From an uncultured Planctomycetales bacterium (GTDB taxonomy: Bacteria > Omnitrophota > Gorgyraeia > Zapsychrales > JAHFFX01): DNA of 64,000 nt. A program made the translations under genes and the position numbers. The notes under the pieces are model-generated. The model ran no database searches and was not told the DNA's origin. It saw only the letters and a list, made by a program, of their open reading frames with translations. Every line of letters begins with the position of its first letter. The first letter of the stretch is position 1. The stretch covers positions 380,896 through 444,895 of the forward strand of contig CAZTCI010000001.1 of assembly GCA_964612665.1 (NCBI GenBank), read 5' to 3'. Below, one piece after another: positions 628-60,438 of the stretch.

Positions 628-1275
628 TCAATTGAAATCTTTAAGCAAACTTTCCAGTTTTTCTTTAAGATTCTCTTTCGCTCGATTCAAAAGCGATTTA
701 ACAGCCTTAACAGAACAATTCATTGTCTGCGCGATCTGTTCATAAGAAAATTCTTCATACCGCTGCAAGATAATGGCCAAGCGCTGATTCTCAGGGAGTT
801 CTTCAATGGCTTTTTGAATGAGAACGGTTTTTTCCTGCTGTAAAAGATTATGATCGGGACTGGAAGCGGCCTGCGCTTCAATGTGAATCTTGGGCTGATC
901 TGCTTCTTCTCCGAAACTTTGCTCGAGTGATAGATCTTTCTTTTGAGGGCGGCGCAATTCATTAAGCGCTGTATTTTTGGCGATAGTAAAAGCCCAGGTT
1001 TGAAATTTGGAACGAGGATGATATGACGCGGCGCTTTTATAAATGCGGACGAAAACTTCCTGTGTTAAATCTTCGGCGAGCTCGCGATCGTTTACAAAGC
1101 GGTATATGAAATTTAAAATACGCGCGTAATATTTGCGCATAAGGGTTTCAAAAGAAGCCGTGTCGCCTTTTTGAAAAGCTAATAAGAGCTGGACGTCGGG
1201 GTCTTGGGTGTAATCTTTATGGGAAGGGAAAAAGGACACTTTAGTTTGGGAGAAAATCTCAAAATAAATTTCCAA
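628..1275 (-). CDS. RNA polymerase ECF-type sigma-70 factor (sigma-24 family)
   Basis: region 2 (ARILNFIYRFVNDRELAEDLTQEVFVRIY) and region 4 HTH (FSYEQIAQTMNCSVKAVKSLLNRA) motifs; track start is a TTG so the true start is uncertain. Confidence 0.85.
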   Translation of the reverse strand: MEIYFEIFSQTKVSFFPSHKDYTQDPDVQLLLAFQKGDTASFETLMRKYYARILNFIYRFVNDRELAEDLTQEVFVRIYKSAASYHPRSKFQTWAFTIAKNTALNELRRPQKKDLSLEQSFGEEADQPKIHIEAQAASSPDHNLLQQEKTVLIQKAIEELPENQRLAIILQRYEEFSYEQIAQTMNCSVKAVKSLLNRAKENLKEKLESLLKDFN

Positions 1276-1379
1276 ATTACAAGCACCAAATTACAAATAA
1301 ATCTTAAATTCCAATGTCAAAACAACAAAACTTGAATTTTGGAATTTCGAATTTGATTATTATTTGGTGCTTGTAATTT
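1274..1379. promoter_or_regulatory. perfect 18-bp inverted repeat (aaattacaagcaccaaat / atttggtgcttgtaattt) spanning the sigma-factor upstream region
   Basis: arms at 1274-1291 and 1362-1379 with ~70 bp AT-rich spacer containing a nested aaattccaa/ttggaattt repeat; lies between ECF sigma start and upstream gene stop. Confidence 0.5.
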
Positions 1380-1393
1380 AGAAATTAACTCAA

Positions 1394-2533
1394 TTATCCT
1401 TTCAAGGCTTTATTTAAATCAGTGATTAAATCCTCTGCCGCTTCGATACCGATCGAAACGCGGATCGTTTCTTTTGTCATGCCGGAAGTTTGCAAAGCTT
1501 TTTCGCCCATCGACGCATGACTCATGGACCAGGGATGTTCGATAAGAGATTCGACACCGCCGAGGGATTCGGCCAGGGCGAAATATTTCAAACTTTTAAA
1601 GAAACGCTCGAGCGAAACTTTGGATGTATTCAATTCAAAAGCGAGCATCCCGCCGAAACCTTTCATCTGTTTTTTGATCAAGTCTTGCTGGAGATGGCTT
1701 TTTAAGCCGGGGTAGTAAACTTTTTTAACGTTGGGATGTTTTTCTAAAAACTGTGCGACGGCCAAAGCGCCTTGTTGATGAGCTTCCATCCGTTGGGCTA
1801 AGGTTTTAACACCTCTTAAAACCAGCCACGAATCAAACGGCGATTGCGAAACGCCTAAGGCGTTGACCAGGAATCGGAGTTTCTCTTTTATCTTTTCATC
1901 CCGATAGACGATCGCACCGCCGACGACATCGCTGTGGCCATTAATATATTTTGTCGTCGAATGCACAATAATGTCCGCGTCGAATTCAAAAGGCCGTTGA
2001 AAATACGGCGACAAAAACGTGTTATCCACGACACTGATTAACTTATGTTCTTTGGCAATCTTGATATTGCCGTCTAAATCAATGATGTTTAAAAGCGGAT
2101 TCGATGGTGTTTCGATCCAAATCATTTTCGTTTCTTTACGCACCGCTTTCTTGACCGCTTTCAAATCGCGCATGTTAATAAAAGAAAAATCAATTTTCAT
2201 CTCTGAAAAAACCCTGGCAAAAAGCCGGTAACTGCCGCCGTAAATATCATCACCGGTAATCACATGATCGCCCGGCTGAAGCAAAAACAAACAGGCGGTA
2301 ATTGCAGCCATGCCTGTCGCAGTCACGGAGCAACCAATGCCGCCTTCTAAGTCGGCGATATTTTCTTCAAGAGCCGCCCGCGTCGGGTTGCCGCTACGCG
2401 TATAATCATAACCTTTATTTTTTCCGAGAGCGTCGAAATAAAATGTTGAGGTGGGATAAATCGGTGTGATGACGGAATTAAAACTGGAATCTTTATTAAC
2501 GCCGGTGTGAACCGATTTGGTACGAATATTCAT
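1394..2533 (-). CDS. PLP-dependent Cys/Met metabolism enzyme (cystathionine gamma-synthase / beta-lyase / methionine gamma-lyase family)
   Basis: 379 aa; trans-sulfuration family hallmarks (N-terminal TKSVHTG, internal STTKYINGHSDVVGG PLP-lysine region); SD aaggagg before ATG. Confidence 0.85.
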   Translation of the reverse strand: MNIRTKSVHTGVNKDSSFNSVITPIYPTSTFYFDALGKNKGYDYTRSGNPTRAALEENIADLEGGIGCSVTATGMAAITACLFLLQPGDHVITGDDIYGGSYRLFARVFSEMKIDFSFINMRDLKAVKKAVRKETKMIWIETPSNPLLNIIDLDGNIKIAKEHKLISVVDNTFLSPYFQRPFEFDADIIVHSTTKYINGHSDVVGGAIVYRDEKIKEKLRFLVNALGVSQSPFDSWLVLRGVKTLAQRMEAHQQGALAVAQFLEKHPNVKKVYYPGLKSHLQQDLIKKQMKGFGGMLAFELNTSKVSLERFFKSLKYFALAESLGGVESLIEHPWSMSHASMGEKALQTSGMTKETIRVSIGIEAAEDLITDLNKALKG

Positions 2534-2722
2534 TAATCCTCCTTGATGTGCAGAGACAGACTGACAGGTATTCTTAAATTAATTATGACGATAAATCTCA
2601 TGTGTCCCAACGTCAAAATAAATCACCTCATGAGCGTTAACAAATCGAAATAAAACCCGATAGTCACGATGATAGAATACGCCCAGTAACCTTCTGGTGC
2701 GCTATGACATTAATTTCTGCGA

Positions 2723-2803
2723 CCACCGGGTGACGCGTAGGGGCCCCTTCCCGCGCGCACGATAGGAGCACGGGAAGGGGCCGAAGCGGCAGGACCCGCT
2801 GGT
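2723..2803. other. GC-rich structured element A (possible ncRNA or cis-regulatory RNA), homologous at both ends to element at 25614-25733
   Basis: ~60% GC island in AT-rich DNA; internal perfect hairpin ggggccccttcccg...cgggaaggggcc; termini CCACCGGGTG...GGCAGGACCCGCTGG match termini of element B and can pair as a closing stem. Confidence 0.4.
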
Positions 2804-2908
2804 TATTATCGATAAATTCCGTCTCCCTCTACTGAGGTTCCTTTTAGTTTATGTGTTCTCAAAGATGATGCAAATCATGGACAATACGGATTGGACGACT
2901 CGTGAAAC

Positions 2909-3106
2909 TTAGCGTAATTCTGATAGTGAACGAACTATCTCTGTCTTGCCGTTCTTAAATTCCTTCTCTCCGCGTTTAATCTTTCCGATAGCTTCTTTAA
3001 ATTCTCCAATCTGTCTGCGCATTGACTCATATTCAGATTTCCGGATAACAACTAAATCATCTCCGTGGGTAGTCAAACCGTGGGGAATATTAATCAAAGA
3101 TTTCAT
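2909..3106 (-). CDS. Phd/YefM-like antitoxin (orphan; no intact toxin partner)
   Basis: 65 aa; HGDDLVVIRKSEYESMRR resembles the Phd/YefM core (G.PVAVLVS.EEYE.L); downstream 2590-2700 holds only a stop-interrupted reading frame of possible toxin remnant. Confidence 0.45.
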   Translation of the reverse strand: MKSLINIPHGLTTHGDDLVVIRKSEYESMRRQIGEFKEAIGKIKRGEKEFKNGKTEIVRSLSELR

Positions 3107-5613: not shown

Positions 5614-8004
5614 ATGAAAAAAATCTATCTGATCGCAATGAGTTTATTCTTAGTTTTATTTTTAGCGCGTAACGGCCATACGGCTTCTAATGTAAGCGCA
5701 CCTCAAGATTTTTCCGCGATCAAACAATTCTCCTCTCATCAAATTAACGATCTGAATTTTGTCGACGGGGTTCCAAAACGTTTGGTCATAAAGTTCAATG
5801 ACAACGTCCGGCCCCGTTTTAATTCCTCACAAAATTTGTTTTCTCTGTCAAATGTGGATTTAACCGACGTCTTGAACCTAACCAAGTCCTTGAGATTACA
5901 GCTTCACAAATTAATCAATCTGCCCGACGATAATCTTGAGGCATTAAAGCAAAGGTCTGAAACGTTATCTGGCCGGCCTCAAAAAGATTTAAACGCCTTC
6001 ATTCAGGTTAATTTACCGGCGTTCATGAGTGACGCTCAGATTGCGCAAATTGCAAGCCTGCTGGAGCAACTTAATTCCGTTGAATATGTTTATCTTGAAC
6101 CTCTTGCGATTGAACCTCCCGGTGACATCGCTCCGCCAACGCCGAATCTGGCATCGTTTCAAGGTTATTTCACACCGGATCCTGGCCTGGATGTTGCTTC
6201 GGCCCGTGCGTTAGGCATAACCGGCACGGGAATCCGGTTGTCGGATTGTGAGTACGGACTTAACCGCAATCATGAAGATCTCGTCGACAAAGTTATCACC
6301 ATTGAACCCGGCCAAACAATCAATCCGCAAGTCTTCTCACTTGGCTATGACGAGCACGGGACAGCGGTCGCGGGTATTGGCAACGCGGTTGAGAATAATT
6401 ATGGAATTAACGGCATCGCGCCTCTAGTTGATTACTATTTTTATCCAGAATGGACGGTTGAAGAAAGTTATCGCCGGGTCACAGCCATTACCCACGCGAT
6501 TGCCAATTCGAAACCGGGCGATGTGGTTCTTCTGGAAATGCAGACAATTTACTATGGGAATTCCTACGGCCCGGCGGAATTAGACCCGGCTGTCTGGAGC
6601 GCGGTTAAGCAAGGAACGGACGCGGGTGTCATTGTGGTCGCCGCCGCGGGTAACGGCGCGCAGGATTTAGACAGCGCCACTTATGCTTCTTATATGAGCC
6701 GCGGTGACAGCGGCGCGATTCTCGTCGGAGCTGGAACCAATGACGCGTATCACTCGCCGCTTTCTTTTACAACGTTTGGTTCGCGGGTCAACGTCCAGAG
6801 TTGGGGCACAGGTGTGTTTACTCTAGGCTATGGCGATTTTGCGGAATACGGCAGCGATCCAAACCAAAAATATACCGCGAACTTTAATGGGACCAGTTCA
6901 GCCTCGGCGCTTGTGGCTTCCTCAGTCAGTTTACTTCAATCTTACGCCGTTTCCAAAATCGCAAGACGATTAACGCCGGTCGAAATGCGTAACATCATCA
7001 TCAATACCGGCATCGCTCAAGGCGCGGGCGTTCACGTCGGGCCGGGCCTGAATATCAAAGCCGCCATGAACGCGATCGATGCGATTAAAATTACTTTAGA
7101 AAGTCACTGGCTGGAAGCTGAGTATCCATCTTCTATTGTTGCGCCAATGACACCGATTAAAGATGCAACAGCTTCTAACGGCGTTTATGTTTACGTTAGC
7201 CCGTCGGACACGAGCAACATAATCGGCTCGGCGACTTACACCTTTAAAATTACACAGCCCGGTGATTATGTTATTTGGGGCTTGAACATTGCTGCTAATA
7301 ATAGCCGCAATTCTTTTGGCGTTGCTGTTGATTCTGCGCCAGCCAAAATTTGGAATATTCCTCTGGGAACGACCTGGAAATGGAACCCGGTCATTGTTGA
7401 TGGAACGACACCCGCGAAATTTACATTCACCACCGGCACCCACACACTCACCATCGTTCAGTCCGAAAAAGGCACCAAGTTAGATAAAATTCTTGTGACC
7501 AATGATTCTTCTTTGATTCCGACGGGAAAAGGCGAGCCGGGAGAAATTGAAAGCCATTGGGTTGAAGCGGAAACTTACACGAGCCGCGTAGCGCCGATGA
7601 CTGTCGTCGTCGATACCGCAGCGTCCAAGGGAAAATATATTACTGTACCCACTACAACAACCTCTAAAACACAAGGTTTAACCACTTACACAATCAACAT
7701 TACAACGCCGGGAAATTATCTAATTTATGGCCGGGACCTTTCGCCTAATTCCAGTCAAAACGCTTTTTACGTGTCGATGGATGCCGGCGCAGATAAAAAT
7801 TGGGTAACGCAAATCTCCTCGAGTTTTATTTGGGATAAGGCCAACGATTCTGGAATCGCAAATCCCGTCGTGTTTCCTCTAACTCAAGGCAAGCACACAC
7901 TCACCATCAAACAAAATAAAAAAGGAACCCAATTAGATAAACTTCTCATAACCAATGATCCCAATTTAGTTCCGAGCGGCTTAGGCCAAACCGCGGGATT
8001 CTAA
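5614..8004 (+). CDS. secreted subtilisin-like (S8) serine protease with two tandem C-terminal CBM6/CBM35-like beta-sandwich domains
   Basis: 796 aa; signal peptide; catalytic His (HGTAVAGIG) and Ser (GTSSASALVAS) motifs; two ~125-aa repeats each starting HW[LV]EAE and ending G.HTLTI...KLDK[IL]L[VI]TND. Confidence 0.8.
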   Translation: MKKIYLIAMSLFLVLFLARNGHTASNVSAPQDFSAIKQFSSHQINDLNFVDGVPKRLVIKFNDNVRPRFNSSQNLFSLSNVDLTDVLNLTKSLRLQLHKLINLPDDNLEALKQRSETLSGRPQKDLNAFIQVNLPAFMSDAQIAQIASLLEQLNSVEYVYLEPLAIEPPGDIAPPTPNLASFQGYFTPDPGLDVASARALGITGTGIRLSDCEYGLNRNHEDLVDKVITIEPGQTINPQVFSLGYDEHGTAVAGIGNAVENNYGINGIAPLVDYYFYPEWTVEESYRRVTAITHAIANSKPGDVVLLEMQTIYYGNSYGPAELDPAVWSAVKQGTDAGVIVVAAAGNGAQDLDSATYASYMSRGDSGAILVGAGTNDAYHSPLSFTTFGSRVNVQSWGTGVFTLGYGDFAEYGSDPNQKYTANFNGTSSASALVASSVSLLQSYAVSKIARRLTPVEMRNIIINTGIAQGAGVHVGPGLNIKAAMNAIDAIKITLESHWLEAEYPSSIVAPMTPIKDATASNGVYVYVSPSDTSNIIGSATYTFKITQPGDYVIWGLNIAANNSRNSFGVAVDSAPAKIWNIPLGTTWKWNPVIVDGTTPAKFTFTTGTHTLTIVQSEKGTKLDKILVTNDSSLIPTGKGEPGEIESHWVEAETYTSRVAPMTVVVDTAASKGKYITVPTTTTSKTQGLTTYTINITTPGNYLIYGRDLSPNSSQNAFYVSMDAGADKNWVTQISSSFIWDKANDSGIANPVVFPLTQGKHTLTIKQNKKGTQLDKLLITNDPNLVPSGLGQTAGF

Positions 8005-8699: not shown

Positions 8700-9040
8700 C
8701 TTTGATTGAAGATTAGGCTCTCCCCGATGATTCTATCGGGGTCCCGATTCCTCAAAATGATTTAGAAAGTCGGGAGAAGCTTTGTCTAGACCGCGCTGAT
8801 TTCAGCAGGGGCCCAGCCCTGAACCCAACGTGGTTCAGGGGTCCTGCCCTTTCGGACAGTTTACCTTTTTCAAAAATCGGTAATAGGTTTTCTCTCCTAT
8901 AACCGCATCAAATATAACATATTATTGCCACTCGGCAAGGTGGGATGAAGTAGTGCATGCGCGGCGTAAAGCGCCGGGGGCCTGGCCTCTAATTAAATCC
9001 GCGGGCCAGGCCCATCGCTTCGTCTACATATTTAGAGTAG
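8700..9040. other. GC-rich structured intergenic region (possible ncRNA), unclassified
   Basis: multiple GC stems in AT-rich context: ccccgatgattctatcgggg, ccctgaacccaacgtggttcaggg, gggcctggcc...ggccaggccc; weak similarity to RNase P P4/P15 strings (gaaagtcggga, gcggcgtaaagcgccg) but not convincing. Confidence 0.3.
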
Positions 9041-12401: not shown

Positions 12402-12462
12402 AATTTTTTCCTTTCTTTTAACCAGCACAACTGGGCAACTGATAACTGGCAAACTAAAAAAC

Positions 12463-17390: not shown

Positions 17391-17408
17391 TTATTCTCCT
17401 GATTATAG

Positions 17409-17475
17409 TTTTCCAGTTAACCAGTTTCCAGTTTACAAGTTTAGAAAATATCGAACTGGAGAACTGGCCAACTAA
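17409..17475. repeat. intergenic hairpin element with tandem ccagtt arms and complementary aactgg arms
   Basis: ttttccagttaaccagtttccagtttacaagtt...cgaactggagaactggccaactaa between BFN gene and nrdR. Confidence 0.7.
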
Positions 17476-17970: not shown

Positions 17971-18045
17971 TCAGTTTACCAGTTCTCCAGTTAACCAGTA
18001 ACCAGTCGATTTTCTAAACTGGCCAACTGGAAACTGGATAACTGG
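17971..18045. repeat. intergenic hairpin element, ccagtt x4 / aactgg x4 arms
   Basis: tcagtttaccagttctccagttaaccagtaaccagtcgattttctaaactggccaactggaaactggataactggctaa between nrdR start and glyA stop. Confidence 0.75.
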
Positions 18046-19293
18046 CTAACTCAAAAGCGATTGATATAAAGGGAATTTCTTTGTCAACTCCACTACTTCC
18101 TTCCGGACTTTGTCCAACGCCTTCTCATCATCTTTATGCGTTATCGCTTCATCAATCAAAGCGGCAATGGCGGTCATGTCTTTTTCCTTCATGCCGCGGG
18201 TTGTGACCGCCGGTGTGCCAATGCGAAGACCGCTCGTCACCATTGGCGGCGCGGGATCAAACGGGATTAAGTTTTTATTAACCGTGATCTGCACGAGATC
18301 CAAAACATGCGCAGCGTCTTTTCCAGAAATATTTTTAGGACGCAAGTCCACCATAAAAAGATGGTTGTCCGTTCCACCGGCGACAATGCGGTAACCTTTT
18401 TTCGCAAGTTCCTCGGCCAATTTCTTTGAATTAACAATGATTTGTTCTTGATATTTTTTGAATTCGGGCGCGAGGGCTTCTTTGAAGGCAACCGCTTTTC
18501 CGGCGATCACATGCATTAAAGGTCCGCCTTGAATTCCTGGAAAAATCGACATGTCGACTTTCTTGGCGAATTCTGCCCGGCACAAAATCATGCCGCCTCG
18601 CGGACCGCGCAACGTTTTGTGGGTTGTCGTCGTCACAAATTCGGCAAAAGGAACAGGATTCGGATGGAGACCTGTTGCAACCAGCCCCGCAATATGCGCC
18701 ATATCAACGAAAAGATATGCGCCAACCTTATCACAAATTTCACGAAAACGTTTGAAATCAATTATACGCGAATACGCCGAGGCGCCGGCCAAAATCATTT
18801 TCGGTTTATGTTCCAACGCCAGTCGTTCAATCTCATCATAATCTAACAATTCAGTTTGCGGATGGACTTTATAGGAAACAATATTGTAAGTTTTCCCGGA
18901 GAAATTAATTTTGTGCCCGTGTGTCAAATGACCGCCGCAGGCCAAGTCCAGCGCTAAAACGGTTTCGCCGTTTTTTAAAACCGACATGTACACCGCCATA
19001 TTCGCCTGAGATCCGGAATGCGGCTGCACGTTGACATGTTCGGCGCCAAAAAGTTTTTTGGCCCGTTCAATCGCCAGGTTTTCCACGACGTCAACGTTCT
19101 CGCATCCGCTATACCAACGCGCCGCCGGATATCCTTCGGCATATTTGTTCGTCATGACCGAACCTTGCGCTTCCAAAACCGCTTCAGAGACGAAATTTTC
19201 AGAAGCGATGAGCTCCAGATTGTCGTTTTGTCGTCGGATTTCTTTTTGAATGGCGTTGTAGACGTCGAGGTCGGTTGTTTTCAAGTGTTGCAT
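18046..19293 (-). CDS. glyA: serine hydroxymethyltransferase
   Basis: 415 aa; full-length SHMT similarity incl. PLP-lysine region [14 protein letters not shown]. Confidence 0.97.
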
Positions 19294-19852: not shown

Positions 19853-19890
19853 TTTTCCAGTTGACAGTTAAAAACTGGAGAACCGGCAAA
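19853..19890. repeat. intergenic ccagtt/aactgg hairpin element (short copy)
   Basis: ttttccagttgacagttaaaaactggagaaccggcaaa between rpiB start and tsaC-PTP stop. Confidence 0.6.
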
Positions 19891-20979
19891 CTAAATCAAC
19901 TTCGCAATCTTCTCAATCGCCTCTTTAATCGTCCACAAACATTCTTCATAAGCGTTAAATGTTTTGCCCATCGGGTCAGAGATATCAATGTCGTCGGATT
20001 CCCAGCGGCCCAAGTTCGCAAATTCTTTAAGGAGATAAACCCGTTTTTCAACTTCCGGCACTTTATCTAAAATCTGCTGGCGGTGTGAACGCGTCATGAC
20101 CAGAATCAAATCCGCTTTCTTGAGCATGATCCGGCTGACCGGCTGGGAAAGATGACCGCTCGCGTCAACTCCTTCGCGTTTGAGTACCTCTATCGTGTCA
20201 CCACTCGCTGGGGCCGTAATAAAAACACCTGTCCCGGTGGAAATAACGTCAACATCTCGACGGCTGCCGAGCGCTTTTTTAAGAAGATACTCAGCCATGA
20301 CCGAACGGCAGCTGTTACCTGTGCACACAAATAAAACTGTTTTGCGCCCGATGGCTTGGTCAACATCCGATTGATGAATTTTTCCTTCGCGCGTCACGCG
20401 CGGCGGGCCGTTTGTAAAATCAACTATCGAAGAGCTAATGCCGATCCGGCAGGGCCCAGCATCCAACGCGACATCAACCAACCCATCCAGATCTCTCAAC
20501 GCTTCCTGACAATTAGTCGGCGCCGGATTATTTTCAAAATTGGCCGACGGAGCAGCCAAAAGACATTCGGAAACCTCAACCAATCCCAGCGCCACCCGAT
20601 GATCCGGCATGCGCACACCAATTGTTTCGCCGGCTTTTTTACCTGGGATAACAACGGTCAATGGGCCAGGCCAATATTTATCAACCAATTTATATAAAAT
20701 GGGTTCATTAAATGCGGTTAAACTCAAAACCTGAGAACGTTTTGAAATCAACACGGCGAACGGTTTTTGATCTGAACGTTTTTTAACTTCCCTTAAACGC
20801 GCAAGCGCTTTAGGGTTATTTAAATTTGCGCCCACGCCATAGACTGTTTCCGTCGGAAAAATAACCAGTCCGCCTTGCCGAATAATTTTCGCGCAGGCAG
20901 CCAATTTATCCATTTCTGGAAATTCGGGATGTATGGGGATAATCTTAGTTTTCATATCAGTTCTTGGCTCATAGCTCAT
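19891..20979 (-). CDS. tsaC: fusion: L-threonylcarbamoyladenylate synthase (TsaC/YrdC domain) + low-molecular-weight protein (Tyr/Arg) phosphatase
   Basis: 362 aa; N-terminal YrdC (IIRQGGLVIFPTETVYGVGANLNNPKA), C-terminal LMW-PTP P-loop (VLFVCTGNSCRSVMAEYL, C-X5-R) and DPMG... D-P loop. Confidence 0.8.
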   Translation of the reverse strand: MSYEPRTDMKTKIIPIHPEFPEMDKLAACAKIIRQGGLVIFPTETVYGVGANLNNPKALARLREVKKRSDQKPFAVLISKRSQVLSLTAFNEPILYKLVDKYWPGPLTVVIPGKKAGETIGVRMPDHRVALGLVEVSECLLAAPSANFENNPAPTNCQEALRDLDGLVDVALDAGPCRIGISSSIVDFTNGPPRVTREGKIHQSDVDQAIGRKTVLFVCTGNSCRSVMAEYLLKKALGSRRDVDVISTGTGVFITAPASGDTIEVLKREGVDASGHLSQPVSRIMLKKADLILVMTRSHRQQILDKVPEVEKRVYLLKEFANLGRWESDDIDISDPMGKTFNAYEECLWTIKEAIEKIAKLI

Positions 20980-24484: not shown

Positions 24485-24700
24485 TCAATCCTCCGCCTTT
24501 AATCCTGCTTGCTTTAATACGCTATTTAATGTACCCGGAGCAATGTCATGCCCTGGATGTCCAGCAATGGTTACACGTCCAGATTTAAATCGATGCTTAT
24601 ACTGCCTATGGCTTCCTTTACTGGCCTTTTCTCTCCCAACGATAAGGTGTTCTATCATTCCCAGGGAGAAAAGGCCTAGTACTAGACTTTTGCAATGCAA
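24485..24700 (-). pseudogene. hicA: hicA toxin gene with its 5' region replaced or interrupted by an ~84-bp repeat element
   Basis: C-terminal 45 aa (SKGSHRQYKH...VTIAGHPGHDIAPGTLNSVLKQAGL) is classic HicA; first ~25 codons of the track ORF (TTG start) are encoded by the repeat element 24623-24705. Confidence 0.5.
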
Positions 24701-24705
24701 AAGTC
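24623..24705 (+). mobile_element. MITE/REP-like structured repeat, copy 1 (inverted copy at 51996-52079)
   Basis: 83 bp ~92% identical to the reverse complement of 51996-52079; contains 13-bp inverted repeat ggccttttctctc...gagagaaaaggcc plus palindromes tagtacta and acttttgcaatgcaaaagt. Confidence 0.7.
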
Positions 24706-24773
24706 AGTAATTCTGACTATATACCAACCATCGCGTTCAACCCGCCTGATAACATCTCTAATTTTTATGAATT

Positions 24774-25568
24774 TTATATGAACTTTTCTCGGACATAATT
24801 TATTCCATTCTCAAAAATCTTCGCTCCGTCGCCATATGTGCCTTTTGTTTCCAACCGCGTCCAAAACGGATGCTGGGTAAATAAAAAATGTCGCTCCGGA
24901 TGCGGCATCAAACCAAAGACCAAACCTGTTTCATCACAAATCCCGGCGATATCATCGACCGAGCCATTGGGATTTTCTGGATAAAAGGGTTCCCCTCCGT
25001 TTTCAGCGCAATAACGGAACACAACTTGGTTGTTAGTCTTTAATTTTTCTAAAATTTTTTTATTCTGTGGAACAAATTTTCCTTCACCGTGAGCCACCGG
25101 CAGAAAAATCGGCCGATTGATGCCTTTGGTCCAAATCGATTTTCCCGACGGCTTTAAATGAATCCAGCGGTCTTCGAATTTAGAAGAATCGTTTGTCATT
25201 AAAGTGACTTGCTGGGTGAATTGATTCTTGCCTTCAGCGCCGGGCAGAATACCGGCTTTGGTTAAAATCTGAAAACCGTTACAAATACCAATAATCGGTT
25301 TTTTCGCTTCAACGAATTGTTTGATCTGACCGCCTAACCGTAAACGCAATTCGTTGGCCAGAATTTTTCCGGACGCGATATCGTCCCCGTAGCTGAATCC
25401 GCCCGGGATCGCCAAGATATGATAATCCTTTAATTGCTTCCCGCCAGAAATTAATTCATTAATGTGGACCAAATCGACTTGCGCACCGAAATGCTCAAAA
25501 GCGAATTTTGTTTCTTGATCGCAATTGGTGCCCGCGGTTCTAATAATAATCACTTTAATTGTATTCAT
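24774..25568 (-). CDS. purQ: phosphoribosylformylglycinamidine synthase I (glutaminase subunit)
   Basis: class I GATase; likely start MNTIKVIIIRTAGTNCD at 25568 (alternatives 25577/25592); the 310-aa track ORF is a TTG-started over-extension through the GC-rich element. Confidence 0.85.
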   Translation of the reverse strand: MNTIKVIIIRTAGTNCDQETKFAFEHFGAQVDLVHINELISGGKQLKDYHILAIPGGFSYGDDIASGKILANELRLRLGGQIKQFVEAKKPIIGICNGFQILTKAGILPGAEGKNQFTQQVTLMTNDSSKFEDRWIHLKPSGKSIWTKGINRPIFLPVAHGEGKFVPQNKKILEKLKTNNQVVFRYCAENGGEPFYPENPNGSVDDIAGICDETGLVFGLMPHPERHFLFTQHPFWTRLETKGTYGDGAKIFENGINYVREKFI

Positions 25569-25613
25569 TTGATTCATATTATTAGAAGTCATCTCATAAA
25601 TGGTATTGAGCGG

Positions 25614-25733
25614 GCAGCGGGTGCACGGCGAGCCGATTGTGGGAGGAGCCCCCGGCCCGCCGTATCCGCTTGCCGGGGCGGGCACACCGGGCGGAGGGAC
25701 CCACAAACGGTTTGCCGTGACAGGACCCGCTGC
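25614..25733. other. GC-rich structured element B (possible ncRNA/riboswitch-like leader upstream of purQ), homologous termini to element A
   Basis: 120 nt, ~70% GC; termini GCAGCGGGTG...GACAGGACCCGCTGC form a 9-bp closing stem and match element A termini; internal stems (cacggc/gccgtg, ccggggcgggc/gcccgccccgg). Confidence 0.4.
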
Positions 25734-25771
25734 CTTCGCTATTTATGAGATACGTTCTAGTCTTTTATCTT

Positions 25772-25806
25772 AACTGGGTAACTGGAAACTGGCCGAACTG
25801 GCGAAC
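25772..25806. repeat. tandem aactgg repeat tract immediately downstream of purSL stop
   Basis: taactgggtaactggaaactggccgaactggcgaac (5 copies), same hexamer as the glyA-operon intergenic elements. Confidence 0.6.
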
Positions 25807-46475: not shown

Positions 46476-46572
46476 ACTAAAAAGGCTTTATCTTGTCAAA
46501 TAATTTTTAGAGAATATTGGTTGGTTTTTTTCTTGGGCTTTCGTCGGGAGTTTGGCGGGTGAGCGGCAAGGA

Positions 46573-46625
46573 AACGCCGGGCGGCCCTGTTCGGCGCAAA
46601 TTTATCGTCAGGGCCGCCCGGCGTT
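46573..46625 (-). terminator. 17-bp perfect GC-rich hairpin downstream of GH5 gene
   Basis: aacgccgggcggccctg-N19-cagggccgcccggcgtt; no strong T-tract. Confidence 0.55.
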
Positions 46626-46648
46626 TACCTAGCTTTCTCATTCCATTC

Positions 46649-51969: not shown

Positions 51970-51995
51970 AGTTTTTAGACTTATAGCCTCCTACT

Positions 51996-52079
51996 GACTT
52001 TTGCATTGCAAAAGTCTAGTACTAGGCCTTTTCTCTCGGAGAATGATAGAACAACCTTATCTTTGGGAGAGAAAAGGCC
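51996..52079 (-). mobile_element. MITE/REP-like structured repeat, copy 2 (inverted relative to 24623-24705)
   Basis: 84 bp; reverse complement ~92% identical to 24623-24705; intergenic between OM barrel gene start and C39 peptidase gene stop. Confidence 0.7.
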
Positions 52080-52088
52080 AGTAATCAA

Positions 52089-54077: not shown

Positions 54078-56639
54078 TTACAAACCGCCGTTTACCACTG
54101 TGGCCACGTTGGTCTGGCTAACATTGCCGCTGATACTGCTTGAATTGGCAACGTTAGTTTGGATCGCAACAGCTGAACCAACAGCGTTTAAGTTGCTAAC
54201 TGCTTGGATCGTCGCCTGAGATCCACCAGTGACGTAAAGCTTGTTCTTCACAGCTTTCGTCTTGGTTTCTTTCAGACTGATATCAGCGGTCTCGGTATTA
54301 GTTTTAGTCTTTGAGACTTCCTTGATCTCGCTTTGATCCACAGTTTCTTTGTTTGAGTGAGATGAAGCACTTGCATCAGAACTTGAGGCGTCTTTTGAAG
54401 CTGCAGCTGACGCACTCTCGGCTGAAGAAGATGACGCTGAAGAATCATGAGATGAAGCTGATTGAGCAGCAGATGAACTTGCCGCTGTGCTTGAGCTGCT
54501 TGAGTCACCAGAAGCTGATGCTGAAGCAGTTGCATCCTTAGAAGCCTTCAACGTTGCATTCAATGTTTTATCATCTGCCGACGCTGAATTGCTGGCTGAC
54601 GAGCTGCCTTGTGCGGCTTTACTCGAAGAACCTGCGCTAGAATCGGTAGATGCTTTGTCGCTATCTGAAGCAGCTGAACTGCTGGCGGCTTCTTTATCTT
54701 TTGAAGCAGCTAAATGCGCATCCAAAGTAGCACTATCGGATGATTTAGCTGAATCAGATGATGAAGCGGCACTTGAAGAAGCTGCATTAGCTTGTTCAGC
54801 ACTGCTATCTGAAGCTTTAGCATTGCCTGAAGCTGATGAATCTTTAGCTGCGCTTAAGCTGGCATCAACATTGGCGTTGTGTGACGATGACGCCGCTGAT
54901 GAACCAGAAGCACCGCTTGCAGAAGATGCGCTGGCTTGTTCAGCACTGCTATCTGAAGCTTTACCATTGCTTGAAGCTGATGCATCTTTGGAAGCGCTTA
55001 AGTTTGCATTGAGGTTGGCATTATCAGATGATGAAGCTCCTGACGATGCTGAACTTTCATTGCTGCTACCACTACTAGCTGAAGCTTGGTTGCTTCCGGT
55101 TGCGGCAGCTGAACTGCTGGCAGCATCGCTGTTTGTTGAAGCAGCGTTTTTATCTTTAGTTGCGGTATTTGTTGTTGCTGTACCTTCTCCCGTGGATGAT
55201 CCACTGCTTGTTGATGAATCCTGGGTAGAGGCACCACCACCTGATGAGCTCTGATTCGTGCTCGTACCCGTCGCGGCGCTACCAGTTCCCTCTAATGAAG
55301 TGGAACTTGAGGTCTTTGACGAATTTGATTGAGCCGTATCATTGCTTGTGGAAGCAGCGGCATCTGAGCTGCTGGACGTGCTACCACTTGAACTTGAAGC
55401 GGCATCAGCTGATTTGCTGGCTGAAGCATCGCCAGAAGCAGCAGATGAATTCTTTGAAGCTGTCAAACTAGCATCCAGTTTACCTGAATCATTAGCTTGA
55501 GCATTTGATTCTGAAGCCGCATCATGTGATGACGCAGCGCTTGAAGTCGAAGAATCGCTTGATGCACTTTGTGCACCGCTATTCTTGGCTGATGACTTAC
55601 CAGCAGATAAGCTAGCATCCAAGCTGGCTTTATCACTTGATTGTGAAGCTGATTCTGAACCAGCATCATGTGATGAAGCGGCGCTTGAATTTGAAGAATC
55701 GCTGGCTTGAGCAGCAGAAGCGCTTTCGCCTGATGCGTTCTTCGTAGCAGACAAGCTGCCATCGACAGCCGCTTTATCTGAAGAAGAATCACCTGAGCCT
55801 GAAGCCGCATCATGTGATGAAGCGGTACCGGCTGCGGCTGATTCAGCTGATTCAGATGATGAGCTTTCAGCAGCAGAAGCACTGCTTTGTGAAGAAACGC
55901 TTGAAGTAGCACTTAAACTAGCATCAATGGCAGCATGATCACCACTTTCTGATCCCGCAGCTGAAGAAGCAGCGTCAGCAGATGATTGTGAAGCTTGATC
56001 AGAAGCTGAAGCTGAATCACCAGATTTATCACTGCTGGTAGCCGCTTGGCTAGCAGAAGCTGAGAAGCTAACCGCTTCTTTTGAAGCTTCGGCTGATGAG
56101 CTTGCCGCTGAATCAGTCGTTTCAGTGGTAGTCACATTCTTATCAGTGTTTGTAATCGTTTTATTTGACGACGATGAATCGCTGTAATGAACTGTCAGAT
56201 CTTTGCTATCAACAACGTTTTTGTTGGTGACGTTAGCTTCATTGCTCTGCGTTAAATCAACAGCGCCTTCAGTCGCGTTCGAAACGTTGGTCTGGACGGC
56301 AACAGCGCTGTCAACGGCATTCGCGTTGCTAACGGCTTTCAGTTCAGCCTGCGCTTGACTGTCGATGACCATTTTATTTTTCTTGGTAGCATCAGCTTTA
56401 TAGCCACCTTGGCTATCTGCAGCAGCATCGCCGCCATCACTATTTTTTGCTAAAACCCACTCGCCGGCGGCAATTTCATCCATTTGCTTATCGGAAAGAG
56501 CAACACCTTCAGCAGCAGAAGCTGACGAGATGCGAAAAGCAAGCGGATAAACCGCAAACATGAGCGTTAATAATAAGATACTGATTTTTCTCGAATTCAT
56601 GACTATTACCTCTATTTGTTGAATGATGGTTAGTAACAC
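54078..56639 (-). CDS. very large secreted Ser/Ala/Asp-rich tandem-repeat protein with GG-leader-like N-terminal motif and duplicated NAVxSAVAxQTNV end motifs (candidate fibre/adhesin)
   Basis: 853 aa; signal peptide; ALSDKQMDEIAAGEW; >=8 repeats carrying [LV][DN]A[SHT]L[STK]A[SGAT]K at ~40-aa period; motif AELKAVSNANAVDSAVAVQTNV near N-term and ATIQAVSNLNAVGSAVAIQTNV near C-term. Confidence 0.65.
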   Translation of the reverse strand: MLLTIIQQIEVIVMNSRKISILLLTLMFAVYPLAFRISSASAAEGVALSDKQMDEIAAGEWVLAKNSDGGDAAADSQGGYKADATKKNKMVIDSQAQAELKAVSNANAVDSAVAVQTNVSNATEGAVDLTQSNEANVTNKNVVDSKDLTVHYSDSSSSNKTITNTDKNVTTTETTDSAASSSAEASKEAVSFSASASQAATSSDKSGDSASASDQASQSSADAASSAAGSESGDHAAIDASLSATSSVSSQSSASAAESSSSESAESAAAGTASSHDAASGSGDSSSDKAAVDGSLSATKNASGESASAAQASDSSNSSAASSHDAGSESASQSSDKASLDASLSAGKSSAKNSGAQSASSDSSTSSAASSHDAASESNAQANDSGKLDASLTASKNSSAASGDASASKSADAASSSSGSTSSSSDAAASTSNDTAQSNSSKTSSSTSLEGTGSAATGTSTNQSSSGGGASTQDSSTSSGSSTGEGTATTNTATKDKNAASTNSDAASSSAAATGSNQASASSGSSNESSASSGASSSDNANLNANLSASKDASASSNGKASDSSAEQASASSASGASGSSAASSSHNANVDASLSAAKDSSASGNAKASDSSAEQANAASSSAASSSDSAKSSDSATLDAHLAASKDKEAASSSAASDSDKASTDSSAGSSSKAAQGSSSASNSASADDKTLNATLKASKDATASASASGDSSSSSTAASSSAAQSASSHDSSASSSSAESASAAASKDASSSDASASSHSNKETVDQSEIKEVSKTKTNTETADISLKETKTKAVKNKLYVTGGSQATIQAVSNLNAVGSAVAIQTNVANSSSISGNVSQTNVATVVNGGL

Positions 56640-59049: not shown

Positions 59050-59069
59050 AATTTTGATTAATAGATGCG

Positions 59070-59119
59070 TGGGCGTTGGGCGGCCGGCAACGACGCAGCG
59101 CCGCCGGCCGCCCAACGCC
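59070..59119 (-). terminator. 17-bp GC hairpin downstream of pgi
   Basis: gggcgttgggcggccgg-N16-ccggccgcccaacgccc. Confidence 0.55.
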
Positions 59120-59136
59120 CGGCGCTTCTTAATGGA

Positions 59137-60438
59137 TCACTCATTTTTCCCAAGCAATTTAAACATCTTCGTCTTATAAGCCTCAACGCCTGGCTGATCA
59201 AACGGGTTAACGCCTAAAAGATATCCAGAAATCCCGACGGCCTTTTCAAAAAAATAATACAAATGCCCCAAATGAAACGCATCCGCCTTACAAAGCGTGA
59301 TCGTCATGTTCGGCACACCGCCTTCGAAATGCGCATCCGCCGTCGCCAAATACGCCTGACGGTTCACAAAATCCAAATCTTTATCAGCTACACAATTAAA
59401 CCCATCAACATCTTGCGCGTCGTGAGGAATCATAAGAGCATGATTAGCTTTATCCAGCATCAAAAATGTTTCAAAGAGATTACGTGTCCCATCCTGCATC
59501 AGCTGTCCCATCGAATGCAGATCCGTCGTTAATATTAGGGAAGCTGGAAAAATCCCTTTGCCGTCTTTCCCCTCGCTTTCCCCATAAAGCTGTTTCCACC
59601 ATTCCAACACATAAAAGAAATTCGGATAAAAAGATGACTGAACTTCAATCGCCTTTCCCTTATTATAGAGAAGGAACCGGCTCGCCGCGTAACGGTAGGC
59701 CGCGTTTTGTTCCCAATCCATTTTGCTGTATTCACTTTGACCTTTACGCGCGCCTTCGACTAAACTTTTGATGTCAACGCCCGCAATCGCCAGCGGCACC
59801 AACCCGACTGGTGTTAGAACCGAAAACCGTCCGCCGACATCATCTGGAATTTCGAATGTCCGGTAACCGGCTTTGTCCGCAATCTTGCGTAAGGCGCCTT
59901 TCTTGGCGTCGGTGACACAGATGATCCGTTTTTTAAGTTCGTTGCCTCTATATTTCTTTTCCATGAATTGTTTGATGATTCGAAACACAACCGCCGGCTC
60001 CGTCGTCGTTCCTGATTTCGAAATCACAACAACAGTGACCCGCTTATCTTTCAGATCTTCCAACAAATTGTATAAATAATCCGAATTCAAATTATGCCCG
60101 GCATAATGCACCGGAATTTTCGATCCGCCCAGGAATTCAATGCTGGACCGAATCCCCAAATACGACCCGCCAATCCCAATCGACACCAGCGCATCCGAAT
60201 TCTTTCGAACCTCTTCGCCAAGCTTAACCAATTCACTGATAAATTTATCTTCAACTCTCGATGGCAAATCCAGCCACCCCAAAAATTCTTTCCCCTTGCC
60301 TGTTCTTTTCTCTAACGCGTCGTGGGCTTTCTTGACTTGTGGGATAATTTTTTCAATGTCCTTTTTCTCAATGAAACCTTTCAGATTCGCCTGATTAAGC
60401 ACGATACTCATAACTTTTCTTCCTTTCTTTGCTTTCGA
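59137..60438 (-). CDS. pgi: glucose-6-phosphate isomerase (short bacterial/archaeal-type PGI; likely start MSIVLNQ)
   Basis: PGI signatures (DVGGRFSVLTPVGL, GESEGKDGKGIFP-like region); track ORF extended 72 codons upstream. Confidence 0.85.
   Translation of the reverse strand, partial: SKAKKGRKVMSIVLNQANLKGFIEKKDIEKIIPQVKKAHDALEKRTGKGKEFLGWLDLPSRVEDKFISELVKLGEEVRKNSDALVSIGIGGSYLGIRSSIEFLGGSKIPVHYAGHNLNSDYLYNLLEDLKDKRVTVVVISKSGTTTEPAVVFRIIKQFMEKKYRGNELKKRIICVTDAKKGALRKIADKAGYRTFEIPDDVGGRFSVLTPVGLVPLAIAGVDIKSLVEGARKGQSEYSKMDWEQNAAYRYAASRFLLYNKGKAIEVQSSFYPNFFYVLEWWKQLYGESEGKDGKGIFPASLILTTDLHSMGQLMQDGTRNLFETFLMLDKANHALMIPHDAQDVDGFNCVADKDLDFVNRQAYLATADAHFEGGVPNMTITLCKADAFHLGHLYYFFEKAVGISGYLLGVNPFDQPGVEAYKTKMFKLLGKNE

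Follow-up and report, generated by a model that had tools for sequence, protein, structure and literature searches.

The window, by which is meant the whole 64,000-nucleotide stretch of DNA that was analysed, contains two short GC-rich islands, A and B, which lie upstream of a Cys/Met-metabolism gene and of purQ, respectively. Their position raises the question of whether they are RNA leaders that regulate these genes or copies of a structured repeat, both of which had been put forward in the initial annotation. The two islands of high GC content in lower-GC DNA that it described are borne out by composition: in 60-nucleotide segments the GC content peaks at 0.77 in A and at 0.82 in B, whereas the window as a whole stands at 0.43 and its 99.9th percentile at 0.75, and A (2724-2801) and B (25615-25732) are the top two non-coding islands of the window by GC. 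On the plus strand A reads CCACCGGGTG...GGCAGGACCCGCTGG (2723-2802) and B reads GCAGCGGGTG...GACAGGACCCGCTGC (25614-25733). On the minus strand, on which all four genes flanking A and B are encoded, both share the reading 5'-CAGCGGGTCCTG-Y-C ... CACCCG(C/G)TG-3', and the exact 12-mer CAGGACCCGCTG occurs in the 64-kb window at A and B only. The coordinates, the termini and the internal stems that the initial annotation had named are correct for both elements (Table 1).

Both A and B are predicted to fold into a single long imperfect hairpin which is unbranched, and in each case the two strands fold equally well. The predicted energies on the two strands are -52.5 and -52.1 kcal/mol for A, with a z-score of about -4 (-4.2), and -84 and -88 kcal/mol for B, with a z-score of about -6. 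The foot of B consists of CAGCGGGT-CCT-G-T-C.. / ..G-CACCCGCTG, with a 3' side that is one nucleotide short of the usual, and its composite interior contains a CCTCCGCCCGGTGTG module that is also present in four metagenome copies (L109, L073, L161 and L106). On its outer sides B is enclosed by an AT-rich inverted repeat of 11 bp without mismatches (25591-25601 / 25741-25751), which can be read directly from the sequence. Two copies from metagenomes, L098 and L099, resemble A in their flanks, which points to an A-type subfamily with a length of about 120 nucleotides.

Table 1. Coordinates of elements A and B, their structural parts and the genes on either side of them in the window
Feature	Position	Strand	Remarks
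A core hairpin, 78 nt	2724..2801	-	Subtype-1 interior CCCGTGCTCC..TGCGCGCGGG; 60 bits with model R1
A closing stem P1, 5' arm CAGCGGGT	2794..2801	-	Partner 2724-2731 (ACCCGGTG), one G.G mismatch
A foot, conserved 3-nt CCT bulge	2791..2793	-	Columns invariant in 30 and 17 aligned members
A foot after bulge		-	G2790 pairs with C2732; C2789 opposite T2733 (Y.Y mismatch); C2788-G2734
A upper stem	2742..2782	-	GGCCCCTTCCCG (2771-2782) paired with CGGGAAGGGGCC (2742-2753); apical module 2754-2770
A plus AT-rich outer flanks (2802-2822, 2700-2723)	2700..2822	-	Flanks resemble metagenome copies L098 and L099
B core hairpin, 118 nt	25615..25732	-	28 bits, B outside the training set of the model
B extended palindrome	25591..25751	-	Closing stem runs on into the flanks (GG/CC, GCG/CGC)
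Cys/Met-metabolism PLP enzyme gene	1394..2533	-	Low-coordinate side of A
65-aa ORF	2909..3106	-	No Pfam match; called as a gene in a Logan contig
purQ	24774..25577	-	GATase_5 domain; start 25577 agrees with the 267-aa database protein P0001
purL, 969 aa	25807..28716	-	229-nt purL-purQ spacer contains B

The initial annotation had placed both elements immediately 5' of the metabolic genes; they are indeed upstream and on the same strand, but A is 190 nucleotides away from the start codon of the Cys/Met gene and beyond the only promoter-like sites on the minus strand near A, which are found at 2582-2616 between A and the gene. B is 36 nucleotides upstream of the purQ start (25577). A also lies 105 nucleotides past the stop codon of the 65-aa ORF, and B follows purL, so that each element is as much downstream of one minus-strand gene as it is upstream of another. 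This position would suit intrinsic terminators or attenuators of the 65-aa ORF and purL, all the more as A and B are strong GC-rich hairpins and further GC-rich hairpins occur in the spacers of this genome. However, neither at A nor at B is the hairpin followed by a T-run on the gene strand, and the 3' flanks of related elements in low-GC DNA (see below) have no consistent T-run either. Related copies are also located inside operons and coding regions, where efficient termination is out of the question, and a terminator function for A and B is highly improbable.

The reading of A and B as a cis-regulatory RNA or riboswitch, in which ligand-sensing leaders would control the Cys/Met gene and purQ, draws on their being structured GC-rich islands that precede metabolic genes on the same strand. 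A search of the whole window against Rfam 15 at gathering thresholds returned zero matches, and in E-value mode the regions around A and B gave noise alone at 10-23 bits (miRNA, snoRNA, and mraW at 14 bits). The classes that the initial annotation had singled out, ZTP (RF01750), ykkC-type/guanidine-I/PRPP (RF00442) and SAM-I (RF00162), are absent around A and B, and Rfam searches of twelve loci with relatives of the elements and of one further region likewise gave no family match at the elements. The fold speaks against a riboswitch as well, as each element forms one unbranched hairpin that has neither a multi-helix junction nor a conserved unpaired pocket, and A and B have the foot alone in common, their interiors being unrelated to one another. 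A further argument against this reading is that A precedes the promoter-like sites of the Cys/Met gene.

The relatives of A and B were collected by scanning JGI metagenome contigs with the pattern CAGCGGGTCCTG...CACCCGSTG, which listed at least 120 loci; as the pattern was itself taken from A and B, the family is sampled with a bias. About half of the loci listed are strong hairpins that start with CAGCGGGTCCTG-Y-C and end with G-Y-CACCCGCTG. Around 19 of these hairpins are GC-rich islands in DNA of 38-48% GC, as are A and B, and the others are located in contigs of 55-75% GC. The pattern matches that do not form hairpins are ordinary high-GC coding DNA and serve as a negative control. When the outermost bases of the pattern are relaxed, further copies are recovered whose closing stems are compensated (CCGC/GCGG, CCAC/GTGG, ACGC/GCGT, GGGC/GCCC and GCAC/GTGC). 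A covariance model, R1, was built from 30 members, including A and excluding B. Applied to the window with filters switched off, R1 scores A at 60 bits and B at 28 bits (E = 0.001) and finds nothing credible besides these two. In 500 kb of metagenome loci it recognises about 88 copies, with two to four in several of the loci, and the length of the element across the family is about 70-125 nucleotides.

The likeness between A and B might be a chance resemblance of two unrelated GC-rich hairpins, given that exact 12-mers frequently recur within 64 kb and that a looser pattern yields many chance matches in high-GC viral contigs. B is nevertheless detected by a model that left it out, and dozens of hairpins from unrelated contigs have the same foot, including the asymmetric bulge and the mismatch, which reduces the probability of a coincidence to next to nothing. 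In pattern scans of viral contigs nearly all hits were chance matches in high-GC coding DNA that do not form hairpins, with one or two possible members among them, and there is no sign of the family being carried by phages. A distant blastn search of the PLSDB plasmids with two high-GC members as query gave no match. A description of the family was not found in the literature searched by sequence string and by topic, which is no proof of its absence.

The foot is the only part that is common to all members. It is composed of a closing stem of 8-9 bp (NNRC-GGGT / ACCC-GYNN), in which the inner CGGGT/ACCCG is invariant and the outer pairs covary (CAGC/GCTG, CCGC/GCGG, CCAC/GTGG, ACGC/GCGT and GGGC/GCCC), followed by a three-nucleotide bulge that is CCT on one strand (AGG on the other), a G that is able to pair with an invariant C, a pyrimidine-pyrimidine mismatch which is always T.C or C.T, and an invariant C-G pair at the top. 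K-turn, loop-E and HDV-like ribozyme folds were considered for the foot and rejected by eye, the required G.A pairs or pseudoknot being absent. Above the foot extends a long stem of variable sequence and length that has accumulated many double compensating changes. In an alignment of 17 members 95.9% of the cells are paired and both sides change in 12 out of 26 pairs; the observed pairing measures are matched by 0 of 500 shuffles, and slid registers drop to 41-50% paired. The outer pairs of P1 and the helices P2 and P3 covary across the family, and the description of a closing stem with variable internal helices in the initial annotation holds as anatomy.

The interiors have a length of about 40-100 nucleotides and belong to several subtypes. 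Subtype 1, which includes A and the copies L098, L099, L113 and others, is characterised by the module CCGT(S)CTCG...TGCG(S)GCGG, subtype 2 by ...CTGCGGTAGCTAAAGCTTCCTCGG... and a third subtype by GGCGCTCCACCCATCCCC..., and AT-rich interiors are present in L086, L126 and L135. An apparent strand-specific folding (54 wobble against 3 A.C appositions) had been obtained with the structure predicted on the CAGCGGGTCCTG strand, and the claim was withdrawn because a strand-symmetric recount over 81 copies gave 93 wobble versus 110 A.C appositions. The predicted energy is slightly lower on the strand opposite the CAGCGGGTCCTG strand in 45 of 58 copies, and conserved wobble positions exist both ways, with T.G in subtype 1 and C.A in subtype 2. 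A strand preference of the fold is not established, in agreement with the absence of an orientation bias.

This absence was seen in a count of 83 copies, in which the flanking genes are both on the strand of the element in 21 cases, both on the opposite strand in 19, convergent in nine and divergent in five; gene-strand calls in the metagenome loci are approximate. A first rough count of about 69% sense copies was superseded by this better count. The neighbours of the copies have no gene family in common, and the sole recurrent 'family', translation GTPases, is made up of paralogues (LepA and IF-2) and does not represent a shared context. Riboswitches would be expected as sense-orientation 5' leaders of one class of genes. 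The members of the A/B family adjoin unrelated genes, among them rplM/rpsI, nusA, ftsZ and E2 genes, some are located within coding regions, and between co-directional genes 21 sense copies stand against 19 antisense copies. Together with the missing Rfam match and the unbranched fold, this leaves a riboswitch function for A and B barely tenable. The initial annotation had also held that a lack of Rfam hits combined with copies scattered without a bias towards 5' untranslated regions would indicate a REP-like repeat. This is what was found, the copies being those of other genomes, and its alternative reading of a GC-rich structured repeat is supported and extended by them. Two false riboswitch candidates upstream of genes for purine and sulfur metabolism are removed in this way, and it follows as a caution that GC-rich islands in AT-rich genomes, which are a standard lead for structured RNAs, can be dispersed repeats.

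The family is present in at least two phyla, Omnitrophota (this genome) and Actinomycetota (Solirubrobacterales), the assignment of coding copies to Solirubrobacterales being based on source names and NCBI records. Several contigs carry more than one copy, with three each in L145 and L191 and two each in L192, L122, L100 and L160. The three copies in L145 are near-identical and differ from one another by one or two bases. The flanks of pattern-matched members are not duplicated, there are no paired ends 0.3-4 kb apart in the metagenome loci examined that would indicate an autonomous element or a related insertion sequence, and no member of the Y1_Tnp family is present among the called genes of the annotated loci.

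A number of the high-GC copies are located in frame within genes. In a pyruvate-dehydrogenase-type E2 protein the lipoyl domain (8-79) and the E3-binding domain (140-175) flank the copy, which is translated as PAGPVAAGDPPPPAVPKASSGVVPPTAPPAGE; subtype-2 copies are found in frame in the linkers of BCCP proteins and a subtype-1 copy in the C-terminal tail of NusA. The coding copies are translated as Ala/Pro/Gly-rich peptides in flexible linkers. Third-codon-position GC was too noisy in such low-complexity linkers to serve for coding calls, and Pfam-verified cases and alignments of orthologues were used in its place. A peptide search with element translations returned 40 candidates, mostly short fragments, among them pieces of BCCP and E2 and the name Solirubrobacterales. 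A predicted read-through peptide in E2 and BCCP is, for example, AGPVAAGDPPPPAVAK. The length is divisible by three in 34 of 59 pattern-matched members. All coding copies have the same orientation, which selection alone would explain, since in the reverse orientation of one subtype-2 copy two of three frames have a stop and the open frame encodes an Arg/Trp/Cys-rich peptide.

The orthologous sites give an insight into the turnover of the element. At the E2 linker site the subtype-2 peptide is present in 110 of the best 120 homologues (68-99% identity), a list that is biased by the fact that the query itself contains the element peptide. Four orthologous E2 copies (L074, L241, L242 and L243) have compensated differences in every helix: the second pair of P1 is A-T, C-G or T-A, P2 is GCCG/CGGC, ACCG/CGGT or ACTG/CAGT, and P3 is GTTGC/GCAAC, CTCCC/GGGAG or CCCCC/GGGGG. 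These compensated changes alter the amino acids that are encoded by both arms. In other lineages the same E2 linker site is occupied by a subtype-1 copy (L171) or by a different perfect hairpin, GCGTTCGTCGAACTTCCCGC...GCGGGAAGAAAGACGAACGC (L244). L171 has two paralogous copies on one contig, and the differences between their stems are fully compensated. In the rplM-rpsI spacer, similarly, L113 and L155 carry subtype 1, whereas L132 carries subtype 2. The near-identical copies of L145 and the E2 and rplM-rpsI sites together show recent copying as well as long retention during which the hairpin is maintained.

These observations leave room for the main rival explanation, which is that the hairpin, as RNA or as DNA, is useful to the host, where it would be bound or processed by a conserved host factor and kept by selection. 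Its role may be that of a barrier to mRNA decay, a site of intercistronic processing, a ribosome pause at linkers or a binding site for a nucleoid protein. The conservation of the foot across two phyla, the retention of the element at the E2 linker in 110 of the best 120 orthologues, with arms that compensate at the nucleotide level, the fully compensated paralogues of L171 and the presence of another perfect hairpin at the same site in E2 orthologues that lack the family element are all in line with a selected structure. Yet the copies occur in either orientation relative to transcription and have no strand preference (93 vs 110, wobble vs A.C), no class of genes consistently adjoins them, and the list of E2 homologues favours proteins with the element peptide of the query. 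The phyletic spread is also patchy, with relatives of the organism of the window that do not have the family. On balance, a host-useful hairpin appears rather unlikely.

The relatives of the window are informative about the origin of B in particular. PurL places the window within Candidatus Omnitrophota, the closest of 54 genome loci being 68% identical, and the next-closest PurQ in the databases is 70% identical. The purL-purQ junction of the relatives consists of 2-44 nucleotides (nine loci), of 80-200 nucleotides of low-GC DNA, or of an intervening LOG-family gene, and none of their loci has a GC-rich purL-purQ spacer. Both a motif search and the covariance model found no copy of the family in 881 kb from these 54 loci of Omnitrophota and other relatives, and the family is therewith patchy, being present here and in Solirubrobacterales. 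Since the relatives have neither a copy nor a GC-rich spacer, B is likely to be a lineage-specific insertion into the purL-purQ spacer.

A and B are two copies of a dispersed, structure-constrained family of GC-rich palindromic repeats, which probably spreads non-autonomously. The best reading of this family, which has no match in Rfam 15, is that it resembles, by analogy, REP sequences or the palindromic elements of Rickettsia. It would have spread, in the past or at present, as a non-autonomous element by means of a putative trans-acting and structure-specific enzyme that recognises the bulged foot of the folded hairpin or of a cruciform, as is suggested by analogy with REP/RAYT, the ends of IS200/IS605 elements and attC/IntI. 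Selection may preserve the potential to form a hairpin after insertion, or else one arm may be corrected from the other by template switching. In the window, A and B would be passengers, with B an insertion in the purL-purQ spacer and A flanked by the 65-aa ORF and by the promoter region of the Cys/Met gene. Locally they would probably add a stem-loop of high stability to the purL-purQ transcript and to the RNA downstream of the 65-aa ORF, which could alter the processing or decay of the mRNA without ligand sensing. There are several points that do not sit easily with a dispersed repeat. The loci examined yielded neither a mobilising enzyme nor an autonomous partner, and no target-site duplication. 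The tips of the element vary, where DDE-type transposons have conserved inverted repeats, and the retention of the E2-linker element with compensating arms is explained by a structure under selection no less well than by a selfish insertion in decay. The data from the source genome amount to 64 kb and the sample of the family is biased. What is unusual about this repeat is the occurrence of one bulged foot in Omnitrophota and Actinomycetota, the in-frame copies in linkers, and a hairpin that is kept as the peptide changes.

The architecture of the family invites a comparison with integron attC sites, which act as folded single strands of about 60-140 nucleotides and have a short conserved closing stem, asymmetric extrahelical bases and a highly variable terminal structure. 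The members of the A/B family have a comparable overall length and a parallel architecture, as the closing stem is followed by asymmetric unpaired bases (the CCT bulge and the Y.Y mismatch) and by a variable terminal structure. An attC-type recombination site, in which the bulged foot would be the target of a recombinase and the interior or an adjacent gene would be exchangeable, could also account for the short same-strand genes of L145, each of which is followed by a near-identical copy, and for the differing interior subtypes at the same orthologous sites. The RYYYAAC...GTTRRRY core of attC is lacking, however, and the termini are NNRCGGGT ... ACCCGYNN. Unlike attC sites, the copies are found beyond cassette arrays, in housekeeping operons and in coding regions, and no integron integrase is seen nearby, neither among the called genes of the annotated loci nor, by eye, among the ORFs of the window. 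A genuine attC-type site is accordingly very unlikely. A broader proposal, which is offered tentatively and is doubtful as it stands, is that of a cross-phylum class of attC-like hairpins with an exchangeable interior, which are actively kept as hairpins in coding linkers and operon spacers. If true, this class would represent an undescribed structure-specific system of mobilisation or recombination, or else a bacterial use of strong hairpins. Should the hairpins be used at domain boundaries and cistron junctions, for the pacing of translation or the processing of mRNA, A and B would be the representatives of Omnitrophota.

The GC clusters of yeast mitochondria and the byps are palindromic islands of high GC content within AT-rich DNA and invade coding regions as well, and in this respect they resemble A and B, which reside in a genome of 43% GC. 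Both kinds are elements of a eukaryotic organelle. The ribosome skips byps, whereas in the A/B family the coding copies retain an open frame and have lengths that are divisible by three. MITEs are small, non-coding, multi-copy elements with complementary ends that are able to make in-frame fusions (PMC10969869). The A/B family differs from them in that it has no target-site duplication, in that its outermost pairs covary rather than being conserved, and in that a search of the loci examined gave no related insertion sequence.

REP sequences have a length of 20-40 nucleotides and are composed of an 8-9-bp stem, a loop of 4-5 nucleotides and an unpaired GTAG or CGTC head (PMC3733652). Like the A/B family, REP, BIME and REPIN elements are dispersed GC-rich hairpin repeats that are located between genes, often in operons, with some within genes; they have many copies per genome, an asymmetric feature at the foot of the stem and a patchy, family-specific spread (PMC3733652). 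The A/B family is longer (70-125 nucleotides), does not have the GTAG/CGTC head and has interiors that vary in both length and sequence. Its foot is moreover common to two phyla, and no gene for a RAYT, the transposase by which REP elements are mobilised, is seen in the annotated loci. The Rickettsia palindromic elements (RPE) are palindromic repeats of about 100-150 bp that are found between genes and frequently in frame in unrelated genes, where they insert at places that the protein tolerates by a mobilising mechanism that is unknown (PMC10969869). In-frame insertion in unrelated genes at tolerated sites is also what is found for the A/B family, in the linkers of E2 and BCCP and in the tail of NusA. 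The hosts of RPE are Rickettsia, which have AT-rich genomes, whereas the A/B family is GC-rich whatever the GC content of its host, and the two are likened by description. With many copies in abundant soil bacteria and with model R1 at hand, the spread and persistence of RPE-like repeats become testable. The A/B family differs from RPE in a further respect, which is that the arms of its hairpin co-evolve at one orthologous coding site.

In Solirubrobacterales, linker copies of the family element in the E2 acyltransferase gene are translated in frame. E2 orthologues without the element have another perfect hairpin, built in two tiers, at the identical position of the linker, as in the E2 gene of a Solirubrobacterales MAG (locus L244). 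Translation of this hairpin gives the pattern EPRSS...DER, which appears again in most of the 10 among the best 120 E2 homologues that are devoid of the family peptide. This suggests that the E2 linker either hosts a second family of in-frame hairpins or is a hot spot for such insertions.

The intergenic spacers of the window harbour further near-perfect, GC-rich hairpins in a genome of 43% GC, for example GGGCGTTGGGCGGCCGGC...GCCGGCCGCCCAACGCCC. None of these other spacer hairpins carries the family foot and each has a unique sequence; the one at 46575-46623 reaches just 13 bits with the family covariance model. Also present in the spacers is a second repeat family, AT-richer and composed of AACTGG-like hexamers (e.g. 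AACTGGAGAACTGGCCAACTAA), which is represented in both orientations and has one copy in the purL-purQ spacer, 26 nt away from the family element B.

Other repeats of the window include two stretches of about 93 nt each which are mutually complementary at 95-97% and separated by 27 kb. One of them overlaps a small ORF (24485-24700) that by eye looks like a HicA-type toxin gene, and the pair may be either a mobile module or a small gene that was duplicated. An AT-rich inverted repeat of 48 nt (83% complementary, 24-nt spacer) is located in the gap that separates the gene for an ECF-type sigma factor from the 3' end of the Cys/Met gene, and a large repetitive ORF, rich in Ser, Ala and Asp, includes 144-nt tandem repeats (repeat families D1-D3).

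Coordinates of repeats, hairpins and neighbouring features
Feature	Sequence	Position
E2 gene	L244	2001-3371
GC-rich near-perfect spacer hairpins	window	59051-59151, 46528-46635, 8925-9024, 8788-8851
AACTGG-like repeat copies	window	12416-12460, 17407-17449, 18004-18056, 19873-19894, 25759-25792
Complementary ~93-nt pair	window	24618-24709, 51992-52084
AT-rich inverted repeat	window	1267-1386
Repetitive ORF	window	54078-56639
c-di-AMP riboswitch	L113	5885-6045 (-)
mfd	L191	13635-17034
Enolase gene	L191	10925-11884
Element cluster	L149	2086-2327
Three near-identical family copies	L145	7353-7461, 8293-8401, 13861-13969

Among the metagenomic loci with family copies, the high-GC contig L113 additionally encodes, on the strand opposite to the rplM region and immediately upstream of it, a c-di-AMP riboswitch (RF00379, 81 bits). 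On L191, a 2.67-Mb contig of ERZ25039556, mfd appears to be broken up over three gene calls and the enolase gene is incomplete, which suggests frameshift errors of long-read assembly, and the gene calls of this contig therefore need caution.

At L149 the elements form a cluster: one copy is nested in or truncates another (internal GGCGGGTCCTGTCGC), and behind this pair lies an inverted copy of subtype 2. L145 holds three near-identical copies, each of which takes up the space between two short, co-directional genes, a layout resembling a cassette array. Of a fourth copy there, on the minus strand near plus-strand position 6394, a truncated 5' half is present, which breaks off after the foot.
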